Source of the DNA: an uncultured Mycoplasmatota bacterium
GTDB taxonomy: Bacteria; Bacillota_I; Bacilli_A; RF39; UBA660
Length of the DNA stretch: 64,000 nt
Assembly (NCBI GenBank): GCA_947305065.1
Contig: CAMZCT010000003.1
Span: forward strand, 23,623-87,622
Direction: 5' to 3'
Below, in pieces: positions 56,762 to 64,000 of this stretch; position 1 is the first letter of the stretch, and every line of letters starts with the position of its first letter. The position numbers and the translations under genes are program-made. The notes under the pieces were generated by a model, which was not told where the DNA came from, ran no database searches, and saw only the letters and a program-made list of their open reading frames with translations.

Positions 56762-56879
56762 TCACTATTTTTATTGGTTTATATTACGAAATATTATGTA
56801 CTTTCTATAAAAAGATAGAATGCTTTTTGTTTTTTTTAAAATATCTATATGTTATTATAATTGTGAAAAGAGGTTTAAT

Positions 56880-57782
56880 ATGAAAAAAGAAAAAAAGGAA
56901 GAAAAGAAATCTTTGTTTGGAGGTATAAAACTTAGTTGGTTGATGGTAATTATTGGGGCGATTGTAATAGGTGTTCTTGTTGGTTTAATAAACTGTGTAT
57001 CATCATTACTTGATACTTCATTTAGAGATCCTGCTATTTATTTCGGTTTTTGGATATTTTGTGGAATATTTATTATTATGAATTCTAAGAGTAATTTGGA
57101 TTCAGCCTTGAAATGTTTTGTATTCTTTTTAATCAGTCAACCATTGATATATTTGGTAGAAGTACCATTTGTTAGAATGGGATGGGGAATATTTACTTAT
57201 TATAAATATTGGTTAATTTGGACGATTTTATGTTTTCCAATGGGATTTATTGGTTATTATTTAAAAAAGAATAAATGGTGGGGATTAGTAATACTAGTTC
57301 CTATGATGATATTTATAGCATTAGAAATGTCTGCTCATGTTGGGGGGGTATTATATTATTTTCCACATCATTTGCTTAGTGCATTATTTTGTATTTGTTC
57401 TTTAATTATTTATCCTTTATGTATTTTTAAAGATAATAAAAAGATAAGATATATTGGTTTAGGTATTGGAATAGTATTAATTTGTTATGGTATATTAAGT
57501 CCAATAATATCTAAGTCATATATTTATGAAACGGATATATTATGTGATAGCGAACAGCATCCATTAGATGAAAAATCTAAAGTTTATCTTAAAGATAGTA
57601 AATATGGGAAACTAGAGATTAAAGAATATAAAGGAGAAGAGAGTTTTTATTGTGTTCATGCAACTTTTGTAAGAGCTGGAAAAACAGAATTTACTACAGT
57701 AGATAAAAAAGGGAAGAAAACAGTTTATGAATTAGAAATAAAGAAAAATACATATGACCGTGAAATGAAAAAAGAGAAGTAA
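56880..57782 (+). CDS. Hypothetical polytopic membrane protein with a soluble C-terminal domain
   Basis: ~6 TM helices after a Lys-rich N-terminus. Start moved to ATG 56880 (RBS AGAGG). Confidence 0.55.
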   Translation: MKKEKKEEKKSLFGGIKLSWLMVIIGAIVIGVLVGLINCVSSLLDTSFRDPAIYFGFWIFCGIFIIMNSKSNLDSALKCFVFFLISQPLIYLVEVPFVRMGWGIFTYYKYWLIWTILCFPMGFIGYYLKKNKWWGLVILVPMMIFIALEMSAHVGGVLYYFPHHLLSALFCICSLIIYPLCIFKDNKKIRYIGLGIGIVLICYGILSPIISKSYIYETDILCDSEQHPLDEKSKVYLKDSKYGKLEIKEYKGEESFYCVHATFVRAGKTEFTTVDKKGKKTVYELEIKKNTYDREMKKEK

Positions 57783-57842: not shown

Positions 57843-59039
57843 ATGAAATTATTATGTGTAAACGCAGGAAGTAGTTCATTAAAGTTTCAATTATTTGAAA
57901 TGCCAGAAGAAAAAGTAATCATTAGTGGTTATATTGAAAAAATTGGTTTAGAAGATACTTTTTGGACTACAAAAATAAATGGTGAAAAAATTAAAGGGGG
58001 AAGATATTTAAAGAATCATAGCGAAGCTGTTGATGTTTTAATTGAAGAATTATTAAAGCATAAAGCAGTTAAAAGTTTAGATGAAATTAAAGGAGTAGGA
58101 CATAGAGTTTTACACGGTGGAGAAAAGTATAAAGATTCTGTTTTGATTACTGATCAAGTAATTCAAGATATTAAGGATTTAACTAAGTTAGGGCCTTTAC
58201 ATCATCCTGGTAATTTAGCTGGTATCGAGGCTATGCAGAAAGCTTTACCAGATGTACCAATGGTAGCTGTATATGATACAGCATTCCATCAAACAATGCC
58301 TGAATATAATTATATGTATCCTGTACCAATGGAATGGTATGAAAAATATGGAGTAAGAAAATATGGTTTTCATGGAACTAGTCATAAATACATTACAACA
58401 GTTATGAAGGAAAAATTAGGTAGAGATGATGTAAATCTAATTATAGCTCATATTGGTAGTGGAGCTAGTATATCTGCTGTTAAAGATGGTAAGTGTTATG
58501 ATACAACAATGGGTATTACTCCATTAGATGGTTTGATGATGGGAACTAGATCTGGTGCTGTTGATCCATCTATACTTGGTTATGTTTGTAAAGAAGCTGA
58601 AATGAATATTGAGGACGTTACAAATGCGTTAAATAAACGTAGTGGATTACTTGGAATATCTGGATATTCTGATAGTAGAGATGTGGAAAATGCGGCATCT
58701 GAAGGGGATCACAATGCTATACTTGCTCTACGTATGTATAATGATAGAGTAGCGAAGTATATAGCTGATTACTATGTTGAATTAGAAGGAAAGATAGATG
58801 CAATCGTCTTTACTGCTGGTGTAGGTGAAAATGGTTGTGAAGCTCGAGAAGATATTATTAATAAGTTAGATTGTTTAGGAATATATATTAATAAAGAAGT
58901 AAATGACTCAATTGCTTCATATAAAGATGTTCAAGAAGGTTTAATAAGTTCTAATGATTCTAAAGTAGATGTTTATGTAATACCTACTAATGAGGAGTTA
59001 ATGATAATTAAAGATACTTATGATATAATTAATAAATAG
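57843..59039 (+). CDS. ackA: Acetate kinase
   Basis: LCVNAGSSSLKF, GHRVLHGG, FHGTSH, IAHIGSGASI, FTAGVGEN. Confidence 0.96.
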   Translation: MKLLCVNAGSSSLKFQLFEMPEEKVIISGYIEKIGLEDTFWTTKINGEKIKGGRYLKNHSEAVDVLIEELLKHKAVKSLDEIKGVGHRVLHGGEKYKDSVLITDQVIQDIKDLTKLGPLHHPGNLAGIEAMQKALPDVPMVAVYDTAFHQTMPEYNYMYPVPMEWYEKYGVRKYGFHGTSHKYITTVMKEKLGRDDVNLIIAHIGSGASISAVKDGKCYDTTMGITPLDGLMMGTRSGAVDPSILGYVCKEAEMNIEDVTNALNKRSGLLGISGYSDSRDVENAASEGDHNAILALRMYNDRVAKYIADYYVELEGKIDAIVFTAGVGENGCEAREDIINKLDCLGIYINKEVNDSIASYKDVQEGLISSNDSKVDVYVIPTNEELMIIKDTYDIINK

Positions 59040-59061: not shown

Positions 59062-60039
59062 GTGATAAATTTATTAATCAAGAAAATATTTAGAAAGATT
59101 AAACAATATGACACTATAGTTATTGCTAGACATACTAGTCCTGATCCAGACGCTATTGCTTCCCAAATTTCTCTTAGAGATTCAATAAGACTTACTTTTC
59201 CAAAAAAGAAAGTATATGCTGTGGGAGCAGGGGTTGCTAAATTTAAGTATTTTGGTGGATTAGATAAGGTGGATGAAACAACATTTGAAGGAGACTCTTT
59301 ATTAATTGCTACTGATGTTCCAAATAAAAATCGAATTGATGGTGTAGATCCTTCTGTTTTCACAGAAATATTTAAAATAGATCATCATCCTTCTGATGAA
59401 GTATTTGGAGAATGCGATTGGGTTGATGAAACTTCTTCAAGCGCTTGTCAAATGATTATTGAGTTGTTATTAAAAACCCCTTTAAAATACGATAGAAAAA
59501 TAGCTGAGAATTTATTCTTGGGAGTTGTTTCGGATAGTGATAGATTTTTATTAAGTTATACAACTCCAGAAACTTTTGCTCTAATTAGTAAGTTAATAGA
59601 TAAAACAGGGATAGATTTTGTTTCTTTATATCCTTATTTGTATGATAGAAGTATTGATGAAGTTAGATTTCATGGATATATAGGGGAGAATTTAACAGTA
59701 ACAGAGAATGGCTTAGCATATATAGAAATTACTGCGGATATCATAAAAAAATATAATGTTGATGCTGCAACTCCTTCAAATATGATTAATGATTTTTCTA
59801 TTATAAAAGATGTCTATGCTTGGGTATTTATTACTTTTGATGAAAAAAATGAATTGTATAAGATTAATATTAGAAGTAAGGGACCAGTAATAAATGATAC
59901 TGCTGCTAAATATGGTGGTGGAGGTCATAAAATGGCAAGTGGAATAAGACTTAAAGATAAAGAAATGATTCCAGATATTATTAAAGATTTGGATTTAGAT
60001 TGTCTAAAATATAAAGAAAGCTTAGAAAAAGATGTCTAA
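59062..60039 (+). CDS. nrnA: DHH/DHHA1 phosphoesterase (NrnA-like oligoribonuclease / pAp phosphatase)
   Basis: ARHTSPDPDAIAS, IDHHPS (DHH) and GGGHKMASG (DHHA1). GTG start after GGGAGGA. Confidence 0.8.
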   Translation: MINLLIKKIFRKIKQYDTIVIARHTSPDPDAIASQISLRDSIRLTFPKKKVYAVGAGVAKFKYFGGLDKVDETTFEGDSLLIATDVPNKNRIDGVDPSVFTEIFKIDHHPSDEVFGECDWVDETSSSACQMIIELLLKTPLKYDRKIAENLFLGVVSDSDRFLLSYTTPETFALISKLIDKTGIDFVSLYPYLYDRSIDEVRFHGYIGENLTVTENGLAYIEITADIIKKYNVDAATPSNMINDFSIIKDVYAWVFITFDEKNELYKINIRSKGPVINDTAAKYGGGGHKMASGIRLKDKEMIPDIIKDLDLDCLKYKESLEKDV

Positions 60040-60099: not shown

Positions 60100-60864
60100 A
60101 TGAAAGTATTAAAGTATAAAAAGACTAATAGTAATAAATATATTTTAAACTTGGATAATGGTGAAAGCATAAAATTGTACGATGATACGATTATTCATTT
60201 TGATTTATTAAGAACTAAGAGTATAAATGATTTAGAAGAAATAATTAAATATGATCGAGATGTGGAAGCATATTATAAGAGTATAAAATATTTAGAAAGA
60301 AAAATGCGTACTACTAAAGAAATAAAAAAGTATTTAATAGATTATCCCAGTAAAACTATCGATAAAGTAATAGAAAGATTAAGTAAAGAAGGATATTTAA
60401 ATGATAATCATTATTTAAAAGTTTTTATTTCTAATCAAGTAGCTATTACTAATAATGGACCTTATAAGATAATGAAAAAATTAGAAATGTTAGGATTTTC
60501 TAAAGATGAAGTTTATGAAGAAATAAGTAAGTATGAAAAGGAAATATTTTTAGATAAATTAGAAAAACTTATTGATAAAAAAATTAAAAGTAATACTAAG
60601 TATAGTAGTAATAGATTAAAAGAAAAAATAATTATAGATATGTCTAATAACGGTTATGATAAAAAAGATATTATTAATATTCTAAGTACTAAAACAATAA
60701 AAACTGCTAATGGGGTTTTAGATAAGGAATATGATAAAGCTTATAAAAAGCTATCTAAGAAATATGAAAAGTATGATTTAGAGAATAAAATAATAACTAA
60801 ATTATTGAGCAAAGGCTTTAATTATGACGATATTAGAGAAATTTTAAATAAAAAAGTTTTATAA
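60100..60864 (+). CDS. recX: RecA regulator RecX
   Basis: Repeated three-helix RecX modules (IDKVIERLSKEGYLNDNHYLKVFI...). ~254 aa. Confidence 0.7.
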   Translation: MKVLKYKKTNSNKYILNLDNGESIKLYDDTIIHFDLLRTKSINDLEEIIKYDRDVEAYYKSIKYLERKMRTTKEIKKYLIDYPSKTIDKVIERLSKEGYLNDNHYLKVFISNQVAITNNGPYKIMKKLEMLGFSKDEVYEEISKYEKEIFLDKLEKLIDKKIKSNTKYSSNRLKEKIIIDMSNNGYDKKDIINILSTKTIKTANGVLDKEYDKAYKKLSKKYEKYDLENKIITKLLSKGFNYDDIREILNKKVL

Positions 60865-60910: not shown

Positions 60911-61477
60911 ATGGTAGAGAGTGAAAAACAAGAAACCAAAAAGAAAAGTAAAAGAAAATATTATCTGTTACTAATCATTTTATTATTGCTGATAATAAGT
61001 GTTGGATATTCATTAGTATCTTCAAATATACTAATTAATGGAACAACTAATATTAGGAGAAGTGAATGGAATGTTCATTTCAGTAGTATTAATGTTACGT
61101 CTGGTAGTGAACTAACAGTTATTCCTCCAACTTTAAATGATAAGGGTACAATAATTAATTTTTCTATCAACTTAGATAAAGTAGATGATGTATATGAGTT
61201 AGTAGCAGAAGTATATAATGAAGGTACTATAGATGCAAAAGTTACTAGTTGTACAAAACTAGGCCTTAGTCAAGAACAAGAACAATATGTAAATTATAGT
61301 ATAACATATTTAGACGGTTCAGCTATTAATGAAGGAGATATATTAAGAGCTGGAGATAAGGTAAAAGTAAAGGTAAGAGTTAACTATATTCAATTATTAC
61401 CGATTAATGAAGCTGATTTAACTGATTTATATGAAACTGTAAATTTGGCGTTCCGAGTAGACTATATACAAAATTGA
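60911..61477 (+). CDS. TasA/camelysin-like secreted protein with SipW-type signal peptide (paralogue 1)
   Basis: Lys-rich n-region, h-region, then VGYSLVSSNILINGTTNI. The core LDKVDDVYELVAEVYNEGTIDAKV parallels TasA LKPGDKLTKDFQFENNGSLAIK. Camelysin-like size (188 aa). Confidence 0.65.
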   Translation: MVESEKQETKKKSKRKYYLLLIILLLLIISVGYSLVSSNILINGTTNIRRSEWNVHFSSINVTSGSELTVIPPTLNDKGTIINFSINLDKVDDVYELVAEVYNEGTIDAKVTSCTKLGLSQEQEQYVNYSITYLDGSAINEGDILRAGDKVKVKVRVNYIQLLPINEADLTDLYETVNLAFRVDYIQN

Positions 61478-61553
61478 TGTAAATTTTGTGAAGATTTTGT
61501 GGTAATTATTTGAGAAAGATACTATAATAAAATTAGAATAGGAGAGTAAAATT

Positions 61554-62123
61554 ATGGAAAAGAAGGAAAAGAAGAAAAATAAGAATAATGTTTTGCTAAT
61601 CATAGGTCTAGTATTGTTAATAGTAGTAATCGGTGTTGGATATGCATCTTTGTATGAAAATTTAGAGATTAATGGTACTGCTAATATTGGAAAATCTACT
61701 TGGAGTATAACTTTTGATAATATTCAACCAGTAACAGGTTCTGTGACTCCTAGTACTCCACCATATGTTATGGGAGAAACAACAACATTAAGTTATACAG
61801 TAGCATTAAATAAACCTGGTGACTTTTATGAATTTAGAGTAGATGTTGTAAATGAAGGATCTTTATCTGCTGCACTTACTAGTCAAACATTAACTGGTGG
61901 TGAATCATATAATTTTATAATTCATGATGTAAAAATGGTTAGTGGATCAAATTTAATTGCTGTTCCTAGTGACTTAGTATTGGCTCCTCATGGAGAAACT
62001 GGTGACACAATTACTCTTGACGTTAAAGTAGAATATGATAGAGAAAATGCTAGTGCTGAATATCTATCTGCTACTATCCCACCAATCAATTTACAATATG
62101 CAATGAATTTCGAACAAGCTTAA
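61554..62123 (+). CDS. TasA/camelysin-like secreted protein with SipW-type signal peptide (paralogue 2)
   Basis: VGYASLYENLEINGTANI after the signal h-region. LNKPGDFYEFRVDVVNEGSLSAAL closely parallels the TasA NLKPGD...NNGSL motif. Confidence 0.7.
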   Translation: MEKKEKKKNKNNVLLIIGLVLLIVVIGVGYASLYENLEINGTANIGKSTWSITFDNIQPVTGSVTPSTPPYVMGETTTLSYTVALNKPGDFYEFRVDVVNEGSLSAALTSQTLTGGESYNFIIHDVKMVSGSNLIAVPSDLVLAPHGETGDTITLDVKVEYDRENASAEYLSATIPPINLQYAMNFEQA

Positions 62124-62133
62124 AAAATGAATT

Positions 62134-62164
62134 TTACAATCTTTGATTGTAATATTTATTTTTT
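62134..62164 (+). terminator. Possible (leaky) terminator between the TasA-like genes and the signal peptidase gene
   Basis: Stem TTACAATC/GATTGTAA with a 3-nt loop and an interrupted T-run. Confidence 0.4.
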
Positions 62165-62219
62165 ATATATGAAGATAAAATTTATCTTTGTATATAAGGA
62201 ATAAATAGGGAGTATTATT

Positions 62220-63368
62220 ATGAAAAGATGGCTTAAGAATTCTATAATTTTATTACTTCTAGGAACATATATTTATTTATATGTTTTTTATATATTAGAT
62301 AATTTGTTAAAGTACTCAGAATCTATTACTTCTGGTGCTGTTATATTAATTTCTTTTATTGCATATTTATTTTATGGATATGCTAAAGATAAAAGGACAT
62401 TTGCAAGGAAGAGTATTTTTCAAATTATTATTACGCAAATGATAATATTCTTTTTAATTAGTTATGGACTTGGTTTAGTAGTTGGATTTTTGAAGAACTC
62501 TTATTCTTTAAGGTTTACTTCAATAATCGATAATATTTTTGCACCATTTGCAATGATTGTTGCGATGGAAATATTAAGATATTTGTTTATTATTCCAAAT
62601 AAAAATAACAAAGTAGTAATAGGTCTTTTAACTTTTGCATTTATTGTTTTGGAATCTGTTATGAGCATTAGGGTATATGCTCTTACAGATTTTTCTGGGT
62701 TATTTAAATATTTAACTTTGGTTATATTACCCCTTACTGTTAAACATGGTATGTTAACTTATGTTACATATTATGTAGGATATAAACCATCTATTTTATA
62801 CAGAGTTATTATGGATGGGTATATTTATGTTGTTCCTATATCACCTGATTTAGGAGATTATTTGAGTTCTATGTTTGGACTTGGTTTACCATTCTTGGTA
62901 TATTTATATAGTTCTCGATTTATTACGGAATATAATGATGGAGTAGAGAGAGAGTATGTTTCAACGACGTTTAAACCGTTTGATTTTGTTGTAATAGGGT
63001 TCTTCTTATTCCTTGCTGCTTTAATAAGTGGTTATTTCCCACTATTTATGTTGGGTGTAGGTAGTGCTTCTATGCACCCTAGTATTAATACTGGAGATGC
63101 AGTAATTGGACTTAAAGTAAAGGAAAATGAATTGAAGTTGAACGATATTGTTGTATATCAAGGTGATGAAAGACTAGTAGTTCATAGATTAGTTGGAATA
63201 GAAGAAAAAAATAATAAGTTGTATTATCATACTAAAGGAGATAATAATAACACAGAAGATGGTATTGATATAACTTATGATAGAATTAAGGGTAAAGTAT
63301 TGTTTAGGATTCCATATATAGCTTATCCAGCAATATACTTTACTGAGATGATGAAGGGAGATGACTAG
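62220..63368 (+). CDS. SipW-type (S26B, archaeal/ER-like) signal peptidase I fused to an N-terminal ~275-aa polytopic membrane domain
   Basis: C-terminal GVGSASMHPSINTGDAV (nucleophile Ser codon at 63069-63071), VVHRLVG (His codon at 63183-63185) and TKGDNNNTED. The N-terminal 62220-~63045 encodes 8-9 hydrophobic helices. Confidence 0.75.
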   Translation: MKRWLKNSIILLLLGTYIYLYVFYILDNLLKYSESITSGAVILISFIAYLFYGYAKDKRTFARKSIFQIIITQMIIFFLISYGLGLVVGFLKNSYSLRFTSIIDNIFAPFAMIVAMEILRYLFIIPNKNNKVVIGLLTFAFIVLESVMSIRVYALTDFSGLFKYLTLVILPLTVKHGMLTYVTYYVGYKPSILYRVIMDGYIYVVPISPDLGDYLSSMFGLGLPFLVYLYSSRFITEYNDGVEREYVSTTFKPFDFVVIGFFLFLAALISGYFPLFMLGVGSASMHPSINTGDAVIGLKVKENELKLNDIVVYQGDERLVVHRLVGIEEKNNKLYYHTKGDNNNTEDGIDITYDRIKGKVLFRIPYIAYPAIYFTEMMKGDD

Positions 63369-63369
63369 T

Positions 63370-64000
63370 GTGAAGCTAAGGAATATTGTTTGTTTTATAC
63401 TATTTGTTTTGTTAGCTTTTTTATCATATTACTTGTTTACAAATGATTTTTATTCATACTTAATAATAGTTGGTCCCGTTGATTTAATAGCGTTATTCTT
63501 TACTTTTAAAGGTTTAGGGGGAAGTAAAACTCCTGAAGATGAGTATAATAGTTTTCTACGAGAAATAATGAAAACTTATGATGCGGTATTGATAGATGTT
63601 GTTGAAATGCCTAATGTCGATGGTAGAAGTATTATAAAAGTAACGAATTTTGAAGACTTAATAGATGCTCAGATAGAGATAAGAAAACCTATTTATTTTA
63701 AGAGAGATGATAGAAGTTCTTTATTTGTTTTATTAGATGACAAACAAGTTTGTATATTTATTTTGAAGGTAGATGATAAGGAAGAATCTCGTTTTGATAA
63801 ATGGGTAGCAGAACAAGAAAAAGAAAAAGTTAAATTTGATGAAAGTTTATTATCTGATATAGAGAATACAACAATAGTAAAACTAGATAATAATAAATCA
63901 TATAGGATATCTCCTATAAGAGAAAAAGGAAAGAATGTAATTAAAAATTATAAGGAATTAGAAAAAACATTATCTGGTTTACCTAAGTTGAAGGATACTA
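63370..64000 (+). CDS. Two-TM membrane protein, partial (runs off the window end). Fourth gene of the TasA-like locus
   Basis: GTG 63370 lies 1 nt after the upstream stop. The frame is open to the window end (210 codons, checked by hand). N-terminal helices are IVCFILFVLLAFLSYYLF and LIIVGPVDLIALFFTF, followed by a soluble region. It is absent from the ORF track because it has no stop in the window. Confidence 0.55.
   Translation, partial: MKLRNIVCFILFVLLAFLSYYLFTNDFYSYLIIVGPVDLIALFFTFKGLGGSKTPEDEYNSFLREIMKTYDAVLIDVVEMPNVDGRSIIKVTNFEDLIDAQIEIRKPIYFKRDDRSSLFVLLDDKQVCIFILKVDDKEESRFDKWVAEQEKEKVKFDESLLSDIENTTIVKLDNNKSYRISPIREKGKNVIKNYKELEKTLSGLPKLKDT

Follow-up and report, generated by a model that had tools for sequence, protein, structure and literature searches.

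A signal peptidase joined to a large membrane domain, encoded next to two small precursor proteins, raises the question of what such a locus builds and whether it represents a new kind of system. The four genes concerned lie at the end of the window, the 64,000-nucleotide stretch of DNA analysed here, which comes from the 1.67-Mb, low-GC genome of an uncultured bovine-gut bacterium, and all four ORFs lie in a row at 60911–64000, as the initial annotation described. Judged from its genes, the locus is very probably an AbpX-type (TasA-superfamily) extracellular fibre operon, and the earlier view of a TasA-superfamily fibre-type locus with its own SipW-type peptidase, in permanent fusion with a polytopic domain, is upheld. 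That view had left the N-terminal domain of the fusion without a family. However, a polytopic peptidase together with DUF5305 had already been noted at AbpX loci in a January 2026 preprint, as a 'ten-TM SPase I plus DUF5305' module (bioRxiv 10.64898/2026.01.04.697558). Because this preprint outlines the gene set, no new category is opened, and the locus is a divergent member of that set. Its features are the following.

60911–64000, + strand: four-gene operon (subunit A, subunit B, 382-aa polytopic peptidase, two-TM DUF5305 protein)
60911–61477, + strand: subunit A, 188 aa, precursor of an AbpX-like fibre subunit (included in alignments A2 and A4)
61554–62123, + strand: subunit B, 189 aa, precursor of an AbpX-like fibre subunit
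62134–62207, + strand: intergenic structured element, with an 8-bp hairpin (62134–62152), then a run rich in U and an AU-rich hairpin of 26 bp (62153–62207)
62208–62212, + strand: GGGAG, likely ribosome-binding site of the peptidase gene
62220–63368, + strand: 382-aa fusion ORF, polytopic N-domain plus SipW/Sec11-type signal peptidase
62220–62969, + strand: N-terminal polytopic domain, aa 1–250, eight helices (AF2)
62970–63368, + strand: signal-anchor helix (aa ~253–270) and SipW/Sec11-type S26B catalytic domain, with Ser284, His322, Asp341 and Asp347
63361–64000, + strand: DUF5305-family accessory protein, continuing 59 nt past the window; two-TM hairpin, cytoplasmic α/β domain and Lys/Glu-rich tail

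Family and precursor features of the two small proteins

As first described, the two tandem proteins (188 and 189 aa) are paralogues (phmmer E 1.7e-22, 30% identity), and both hold a Lys-rich n-region and an h-region followed by VGY(S/A)..N(I/L)xINGT(T/A)NI. Subunit A runs from a basic n-region and a TM-like h-region through VGYS and, across the predicted cut, LVSSNILINGTTNI to a β-sandwich core. Subunit B, in which LNKPGDFYEFRVDVVNEGSLSAAL is present, has the core motif KPGDFYEF..VVNEGS, and its predicted cut after VGYA would expose SLYENLEINGTANI as a putative donor strand.

Searches of Pfam and NCBIfam returned zero family matches for both subunits, and Peptidase_M73 (PF12389) was matched at E<=1 neither by them nor by any of the 21 members of the close-family profile (A2). 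A profile of the window subunits and their syntenic homologues (A4), run against all PDB sequences, placed AbpX (9sj2) first, with an E-value of 2.1e-16 over chain residues 2–161, which is the whole mature chain, followed by TasA (8aur and 5of1, E 2–3e-3). Used by itself against the PDB, the A2 profile missed AbpX; its hhalign comparison with AbpX gave a probability of 71.6% (E 3.5e-5, 155 columns). A transitive phmmer link joins them as well: AbpX as query matches subunits whose genes adjoin that of a polytopic peptidase (1e-12 to 1e-5), and these subunits also match A2 (1e-5 to 1e-50), the direct BLASTP comparison of subunit B with AbpX being weak (E 0.04). By these sequence comparisons, the subunits are assigned to the AbpX clade of the TasA superfamily; of the former label 'TasA/camelysin-like', the superfamily therefore stands, but TasA/camelysin proper does not, given the missing Peptidase_M73 match.

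A low pI (~4) and ~15% Asp/Glu are traits of the AbpX clade, and both predicted mature subunits display them, with a pI of 4.47 and 13.6% Asp+Glu in subunit A, and 4.15 and 12.0% in subunit B (4.05 and 14.8% when AbpX is computed alike). The AF2 model of subunit B (pLDDT 85.6) comprises a TM helix (residues 11–33), a low-confidence, unstructured stretch (34–51) and an all-β sandwich (52–188); lack of structure at residues 34–51 of a monomer model is as would be expected of a donor strand. The top PDB match of this model in Foldseek was the TasA fibre 8aur, at a modest level (E 3.4e-3, TM 0.33–0.40), and AbpX entries were not among the 50 matches listed.

The cleavage context of AbpX (G-x-Y-A) and the amphipathic strand behind it align with the window subunits, which are nevertheless only ~21% identical to it. 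Cut after G-Y-A/S, subunit A would begin with LVSSNILING and subunit B with SLYENLEING. [quoted passage not shown] The alternating hydrophobic strand pattern L-x-I-x-G-x-A-x-I is conserved in the subunit family alignment.

The polytopic signal peptidase and its DUF5305 partner

The S26B peptidase recognized from the outset at the C-terminus of the fusion, with its SASMHP Ser284, VHRL His322 and GDNN Asp341, is borne out both by the presence of these residues and by the match of aa 264–375 to NCBIfam TIGR02228 (archaeal/SipW-type signal peptidase I), which scores 78.5 bits (4.9e-22) against a cut-off of 51.85. The SipW equivalog NF046067 reached 63.2 bits, below its cut-off of 190. Ser284, His322, Asp341 and Asp347 are invariant in alignment A1 and 94–95% conserved over 119 diverse homologues, and by its sequence the peptidase is classed with the ER/archaeal Ser-His type, not with the Ser-Lys enzymes of the bacterial LepB type. 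Foldseek of the fusion model likewise put human SEC11A/C, in 7p2p and 7p2q, on top (E 2.4e-4, prob 1.00).

The fusion itself is genuine: the check for a missed stop or a frameshift, proposed together with the original description, revealed neither, and the length of ~382 aa is kept by homologues down to 38% identity. The 8–9 TM helices announced for the first ~275 aa agree with the AF2 model (pLDDT 77.9), where nine helices, eight of the N-domain and the peptidase anchor, precede the catalytic domain. In one lineage (L086–L088), the N-domain and the peptidase are encoded by two overlapping genes, the gene neighbourhood being otherwise the same, and this naturally split version shows the two to be separable partners.

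The N-domain is a well-conserved protein module with a near-invariant Glu/Arg pair. A search with it found 582 matching clusters (50% identity), and among the 150 best almost every one is ~370–395 aa long. Its conserved residues are Gly85, Gly89, Glu117 and Arg120 (both in TM4), Pro206 and Pro209. With a conservation of 99% for Glu117 and 98% for Arg120 over 119 homologues, the E-x-x-R (AMEILRYL) had been rightly singled out as a signature; the "conserved-looking His" of TVKHG, however, is not conserved across the homologue alignments. A Pfam search with 11 N-domain members gave nothing at E<=10, PF02517 included, and a PDB sequence search with the N-domain gave no match.

The last protein had been described as a two-TM protein; it does have two adjacent TM segments, and it belongs to the DUF5305 family ('SPase I accessory', PF17231), which it matches at 1.3e-9 (38.2 bits, cut-off 29) over profile positions 141–214 of 217 only. 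Full DUF5305 proteins consist of TM1, an extracellular β-sandwich, TM2 and a cytoplasmic α/β domain (bioRxiv 10.64898/2026.01.04.697558). The β-sandwich is missing from the window protein, whose TM segments (9–27 and 34–52) are ~6 residues apart, whereas ~200 residues separate them in the paralogues on contigs C16, C29 and C2. Its ORF measures 232 aa from ATG 63361 (read on the genome contig) or 229 aa from GTG 63370. This GTG indeed lies 1 nt after the upstream stop (TAG 63366–63368), with AAGGGAG 9 nt upstream, and the alternative in-frame ATG overlaps the peptidase stop; translation of the DUF5305 gene is coupled to that of the peptidase gene.

Gene neighbourhood, expression and related systems

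The co-occurrence of the N-domain fusion with TasA-like genes, put forward initially as a check, was found: across 62 genome loci with the N-domain, a subunit-family gene is present at 52, a DUF5305 gene at 52 and both at 42. In almost all such loci, distributed over Bacilli, Clostridia and Chloroflexi, the subunit gene or genes come first, then the peptidase gene and then DUF5305. The window locus holds the AbpX-type gene set, that is, a TIGR02228 peptidase with about ten TM helices and an adjacent DUF5305 gene, and neither SLH, LPXTG, sortase nor c-di-GMP genes adjoin it. The 1.67-Mb genome contains four paralogous loci plus at least five subunit-headed proteins of 654–668 aa, and its putative substrates number at least a dozen.

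Between the subunit genes and the machinery genes, region 62118–62222 folds with an MFE of -28.3 kcal/mol (z -6.4, 0/200 shuffles as good). A "possible terminator" had been suspected here; a consensus terminator scan did not find one, but the strong hairpin fold stands, and the element may act as a partial terminator or attenuator. Contigs from bovine-gut metatranscriptomes span the locus with 0–5 mismatches and are deeper over the subunit genes. In run X6, contigs end at 62138 and the depth falls from 12–28 to 4–8, contig word depth being a poor measure of expression. The hairpin and these depths lend soft support to high expression of the subunits and low expression of the machinery.

Among the closest known systems are the AbpX loci, represented by Pyrodictium abyssi AbpX (PDB 9SJ2/9RHP) and by homologues from Thermoproteota, Bacillota and Chloroflexota (bioRxiv 10.64898/2026.01.04.697558). 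Those loci share with the window homologous acidic subunits, a TIGR02228 peptidase with about ten helices, a DUF5305 gene and extra minor-subunit paralogues; they differ in the complete DUF5305 protein and in the four paralogous loci found here in one genome. The parallel drawn at first with archaeal bundling-pilus loci was apt. The tapA-sipW-tasA operon of B. subtilis also dedicates a SipW/Sec11-type peptidase to a secreted β-sandwich fibre subunit, and TasA ranks second among PDB families for the A4 profile and first in Foldseek for subunit B. TasA polymerises by donor-strand exchange, and SipW, of ~190 aa, does not hold an eight-helix domain. Unlike that operon, the window has subunits that do not match Peptidase_M73, a peptidase at 63 versus 190 bits for NF046067, and a DUF5305 gene where no TapA-like gene is found.

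The haloarchaeal Tat-fimbriae (tafi) have donor-strand subunits (TafA/C/E), an S26 peptidase dedicated to them (TafD) and a DUF5305 protein (TafG). However, these subunits are exported through Tat, TafD spans the membrane with four helices and bears an additional domain at its C-terminus, not an eight-helix domain at its N-terminus, and TafG is a full DUF5305 protein (PMC11821415). Finally, the eukaryotic signal peptidase complex (SEC11A/C plus SPCS1-3; 7P2P/7P2Q) has the same fold of the catalytic domain, and its catalytic subunit works with extra membrane-spanning parts; in the window, by contrast, the extra helices are fused in cis, with no homology to SPCS1-3 detected. Any functional analogy between the two would be putative.

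Proposed mechanism and alternative readings

The Sec pathway would export the precursors, whose signal-anchor would keep them in the membrane until their own peptidase cleaves behind the conserved G-Y-A/S (with small residues at both -3 and -1), freeing the amphipathic strand xLxxNLxINGTxNI. This strand would then enter the open groove of a neighbour (donor-strand complementation), so that a major and a minor subunit together build up the fibre, and the hairpin between the subunit and machinery genes would lower read-through, yielding more subunits than machinery. The N-domain, DUF5305 and the catalytic domain may form a substrate-dedicated signal-peptidase complex that recognizes or positions the unusual signal-anchor; the roles given here to the N-domain and DUF5305, including that of an assembly platform, are our inference. 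A further step, which is possible but doubtful, is that this prokaryotic complex doubles as the fibre assembly site, where the helix bundle (Glu117/Arg120 and conserved outward loops) would hold the signal-anchor and cleavage would be coupled to strand insertion. If true, Gram-positive bacteria would have a version of the chaperone-usher logic that is embedded in the membrane and works without a chaperone.

Other readings of the same genes have to be considered. The N-domain may be an enzyme itself, an intramembrane hydrolase or transferase acting on Glu117/Arg120 (for example, by clearing or re-cutting the freed signal-anchor), and not a passive docking scaffold, as the near-invariance of a buried Glu-x-x-Arg in TM4 and a first hhalign comparison, which set E117/R120 on the EExxxR motif of CPBP proteases, would allow. 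However, with a richer 16-sequence CPBP profile the similarity (prob 5.4%, E 0.007) equals that of a reversed-sequence control (4.6%, E 0.009). Both CPBP histidine motifs (FxxxH and HxxxN/D) are without a conserved counterpart, leaving only an E-x-x-R of other spacing, and Rce1 is not among the 50 Foldseek matches listed for the whole fusion protein. With similarity at noise level, no conserved His and the empty Pfam search, a CPBP/Rce1 (CAAX protease, PF02517) identity is not supported at the sequence level, and an enzymatic N-domain is unlikely.

The small proteins, in turn, may be dedicated substrates of the peptidase that do not polymerise, staying as monomeric surface or matrix proteins (e.g., wall-associated or binding modules) in which the post-anchor segment is a recognition element only. 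The AbpX donor-strand signature is largely absent in this branch, as its few acidic residues at position 4 illustrate, and the same N-terminal module heads proteins of 654–750 aa with large C-terminal domains, which fits a display module equally well. Nevertheless, the homology to AbpX is full-length, N-terminal strand included, the alternating hydrophobic pattern is conserved, and tandem paralogous subunits are typical of major and minor fibre subunits, all of which makes monomers quite improbable. Retention of an uncleaved signal-anchor, with the small proteins tethered to the membrane and the adjoining peptidase serving other substrates, would accommodate the long h-region and its predicted 23-residue helix (AF2). 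It is contradicted by the fit of G-Y-A/S to the -3/-1 rule and its alignment with the AbpX cleavage site, by the AbpX mature N-terminus (QWSETL...) that heads the deposited fibril chain, by the strict synteny of subunits and peptidase, and by the experimental requirement of TafD for TafA processing in Haloarcula (PMC11821415), and has very little to commend it.

Fibres of the TasA/AbpX type are a cross-domain means of building biofilm matrix, and the four loci in one 1.67-Mb genome indicate that small-genome, uncultured Bacilli of the bovine gut invest heavily in an AbpX-type system. The locus offers a compact system for asking how a signal peptidase gains substrate specificity, and whether its cut and the assembly of the fibre are coupled.

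Layout of the locus and architecture of the peptidase

The four ORFs that the initial annotation had described at this locus are present in an assembly of 1.67 Mb (42 contigs, ~27% GC), of which the window spans C3:23623–87622, in the following order:

60911–61477: subunit A, ORF of 188 aa
61554–62123: subunit B, ORF of 189 aa
62220–63368: polytopic peptidase, ORF of 382 aa
63361 (ATG) or 63370 (GTG) to past the window end: DUF5305-family ORF, 232 aa in the genome contig

As previously noted, the GTG at 63370 lies 1 nt past the TAG of the peptidase gene; it also lies 9 nt past an AAGGGAG sequence. Subunits A and B are indeed paralogous (E 1.7e-22; 30% identity), and both hold the motifs earlier quoted for them. 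Housekeeping genes for a DHH/DHHA1 phosphoesterase (59062–60039) and a RecX-family protein (60100–60864) precede the locus, and no functional tie between them and the fibre operon is found within the window. Further upstream, 57843–59039 looks like an acetate kinase gene, by its N-terminal motif only, and 56820–57782 encodes a polytopic membrane protein of 320 aa whose C-terminal part is soluble and whose only family match is a weak, sub-threshold one to PEMT (E 0.006).

Residues 264–375 of the peptidase are covered by TIGR02228, the NCBIfam model of archaeal/SipW-type signal peptidase I (78.5 bits, cut-off 51.85); the Bacillus SipW equivalog of NCBIfam is not reached (63 bits, cut-off 190). 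In the AlphaFold2 model (pLDDT 77.9, pTM 0.72), nine helices precede a beta domain; among PDB structures, this model is matched best by human SEC11A and SEC11C from the signal peptidase complex (7p2p and 7p2q; E 2.4e-4, prob 1.00). Ser284, His322, Asp341, and Asp347 are invariant in 20 homologues, and 94–95% conserved in 119 representatives at ≤50% identity.

The fusion of this peptidase to a polytopic domain, already proposed from the sequence, is real. The length of ~382 aa is kept in at least 120 homologues of 38–98% identity, and a search with the N-terminal domain alone (N-domain, aa 1–250) among 1.84 billion cluster representatives gave 582 matches at E ≤ 0.001, the best 150 of which are nearly all proteins of 370–395 aa with the domain at the N-terminus. 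A frameshift or missed stop around 63000–63060 is ruled out, as the frame is open and the homologues are full length. Named homologues are few, and are annotated solely as "signal peptidase I" from Bacilli or Bacillota metagenome-assembled genomes. In the genus to which the window's genome belongs, 23 of 25 genomes hold one to four copies of the peptidase, all of them open frames of 373–398 aa save two fragments; 16 further genera from its class or order have no copy of the polytopic form. In one lineage, represented by three independent assemblies (metagenome contigs from three samples), a 247-aa N-domain gene and a 143-aa S26 peptidase gene overlap by 38 nt, with a 267-aa DUF5305 gene downstream of the split pair. 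This arrangement represents either a fusion that has split naturally or a frameshift that has been conserved; as overlapping genes, the N-domain and the peptidase would therefore be separable modules that remain together.

The N-domain is strongly conserved at Gly85 (100%), Gly89 (97%), Glu117 (99%), Arg120 (98%), Pro206 (99%), and Pro209 (97%), but not at His176, the residue that had been singled out as a conserved-looking histidine. Helix order and the positive-inside rule suggest a cytoplasmic N-terminus, and the AlphaFold2 model together with the sequence predicts that Glu117 and Arg120 lie in TM4, with the loops at ~89–98 and ~204–212 exposed to the outside, where the catalytic domain also lies. 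Neither Pfam nor the PDB sequences gave any match to the N-domain at E ≤ 10, and in a Foldseek search of the whole peptidase, the peptidase domain dominated, with no credible match for the helices. A relationship to CPBP/CAAX proteases was also considered. Aligned by hhalign with eight CPBP proteins, the N-domain places Glu117 and Arg120 on the EExxxR motif (prob 23.7%); however, a richer profile of 16 CPBP sequences gave 5.4% (E 0.007), a score indistinguishable from those of reversed-sequence controls (4.6% and 1.2%), and this identity is therefore rejected at the sequence level.

Relationship of the subunits to AbpX

The subunits had been described as having a TasA-like core, in a TasA/camelysin-like locus, but the TasA/camelysin family (Peptidase_M73) was not matched in the Pfam search; Pfam and NCBIfam gave only weak fn3/Ig-like noise. 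Subunit B, as modelled by AlphaFold2 (pLDDT 85.6), has a TM helix (residues 11–33), a low-confidence unstructured stretch (34–51), and a beta-sandwich (52–188). The TasA fibre 8aur ranks first among the PDB matches to this model, although weakly (E 3.4e-3, TM 0.33–0.40).

A closer relative is AbpX, a fibre subunit of the TasA superfamily from Pyrodictium abyssi, whose sequence is printed in the supplement of a January 2026 preprint (bioRxiv 10.64898/2026.01.04.697558). An hhalign comparison between the close subunit family and AbpX (prob 71.6%, E 3.5e-5, 155 collinear columns) brings together the IGxxYA motif, the strand after it, and the PG..N.G(T/S)(I/L).A motif. Used as a query on ORFs from the window's own genome and from the related loci retrieved, AbpX matches the small proteins encoded beside polytopic peptidases. 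Its E-values are lowest for Chloroflexi and Bacillota (1e-10 to 1e-12), followed by Clostridia (2e-6 to 2.5e-8) and Bacilli (~1e-5), and these proteins also match the close-family profile (1e-5 to 1e-50). That profile missed AbpX among the PDB sequences, where it found only fn3 at E > 0.06, so a broader one was needed. A profile of the two window subunits and 21 syntenic homologues, searched against all PDB sequences, retrieved AbpX first (9sj2, E 2.1e-16, over the entire mature chain; 9rhp, 1.3e-12) and TasA as the second family (8aur, 1.7e-3; 5of1, 3e-3). Together, the hhalign, AbpX-query, and broad-profile matches place the subunits in a divergent branch of the AbpX clade within the TasA superfamily. 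Their predicted mature forms have an AbpX-like pI of 4.15–4.47.

Synteny, accessory gene, and expression

Relatives, sought in one genome per species with the alignment of peptidase homologues, were found in uncultured Bacilli, "Mollicutes", Erysipelotrichaceae, Chloroflexi, and Clostridia, the last including Clostridium sp. CAG:1000 and Ruminococcus intestinalis. Among 62 loci with the N-domain, a subunit-family gene occurs in 52 and a DUF5305 gene likewise in 52; the two occur together in 42, and the order subunit(s)–peptidase–DUF5305 is kept in almost all cases. The window's own genome holds four such loci (contigs C3, C16, C29, and C2).

The fourth gene matches Pfam DUF5305 at 38.2 bits (threshold 29), over positions 141–214 of the 217 of the profile only. 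Its two TM segments are adjacent, whereas three paralogues in the genome hold ~200 extracytoplasmic residues between theirs. The window's copy lacks the extracellular beta-sandwich of full-length DUF5305 proteins.

Between the genes of subunit B and the peptidase, folding yields an 8-bp hairpin, then a U-rich run and a 26-bp AU hairpin (z -6.4). The consensus scan gives no call here for the terminator suspected after the subunit genes, and the AU-rich hairpin came out of the folding alone. The locus was found in bovine-gut metagenomes and metatranscriptomes. In one RNA run, zero-mismatch contigs span 61248–62138 at a depth of 12–28 and end at the hairpin, past which coverage of the peptidase and DUF5305 genes is only partial, at a depth of 4–8; two further metatranscriptome runs show a roughly two-fold lower depth downstream, or gaps, and depth in a DNA run is nearly flat across the locus (7.6 versus 6.0). 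Contig depth is a poor measure, but these values fit a subunit transcript more abundant than that of the machinery.

Related proteins in the genome and comparison with known systems

In the window's own genome, the signal and subunit module also stands at the head of at least five proteins of 654–668 aa and one of 750 aa. The former are encoded at:

C3:91168–93132 (3.5 kb past the window end)
C9:32029–33999
C11:10058–12064
C24:7930–9924
C4:23813–25780

All five open with this signal-anchor, the G-Y-A motif, and the AbpX-like module, and continue into a ~460-aa domain rich in Cys, Asn, Thr, and Tyr, for which a Pfam scan of one copy (C3:91168) gave no match. Four of the five share the C-terminus SGTGSE(S/T/A)DPWI(V/A)E. 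Such proteins could be adhesins displayed on the fibres, or tip subunits, with the same peptidases serving them. The 750-aa protein (C16:31556–33808, minus strand), encoded immediately after the subunit–peptidase–DUF5305 locus of C16, holds a subunit-type signal (VGYA↓IYSVRLNVNG), a weak PKD-like match, and weak Hint/intein matches near GGCVVEGTKVLLANG (Hom_end_hint E 0.0036, Intein_splicing E 0.0075), and may be a surface protein that cleaves itself and is linked to a fibre locus.

The subunit paralogue of the C2 locus (C2:32523–33035, minus strand) keeps the PxxFYEVxFDVVNSG core, but past its hydrophobic segment neither the G-Y-A motif nor the LxIxGTA strand is present. It could accept but not give a donor strand and would then be a candidate for a capping or anchoring role. 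At C1:95000–103300, three short SipW-like genes (180–195 aa) lie among several secreted proteins of ~190–320 aa, beside a protein of 913 aa whose N-terminus resembles that of type IV pilins. One of the secreted proteins holds a TasA-like A↓WF motif and a weak Peptidase_M73 match (E 0.008), the only such match among the subunit-like paralogues of the genome. This cluster looks like a second, more TasA-like system.

AbpX-associated type I signal peptidases of bacteria and archaea hold ten TM helices, and abpX loci also code for minor subunits, tip proteins, and a DUF5305 accessory protein (bioRxiv 10.64898/2026.01.04.697558). Similarly, in haloarchaeal tafi, the processing of TafA needs the peptidase TafD, and TafG is a DUF5305 protein. 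The window operon is the AbpX-locus module of the preprint, with three differing features. [quoted passage not shown] The other two features are the truncation of the accessory DUF5305 protein and the expansion of the system to several loci in the genome.

The initial annotation was right in kind, its errors concerning details such as the TasA/camelysin label and the conservation of His176. With the homology, architecture, and synteny of the operon established, the most likely mechanism is one in which the precursors would be exported by Sec; we infer that the dedicated peptidase would then cut them after G-Y-A/S, that a major and a minor subunit would polymerise by a donor-strand mechanism, and that the N-domain and the DUF5305 protein would be parts of a substrate-dedicated peptidase complex. 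The operon is a divergent representative of a system type described in 2025–2026.
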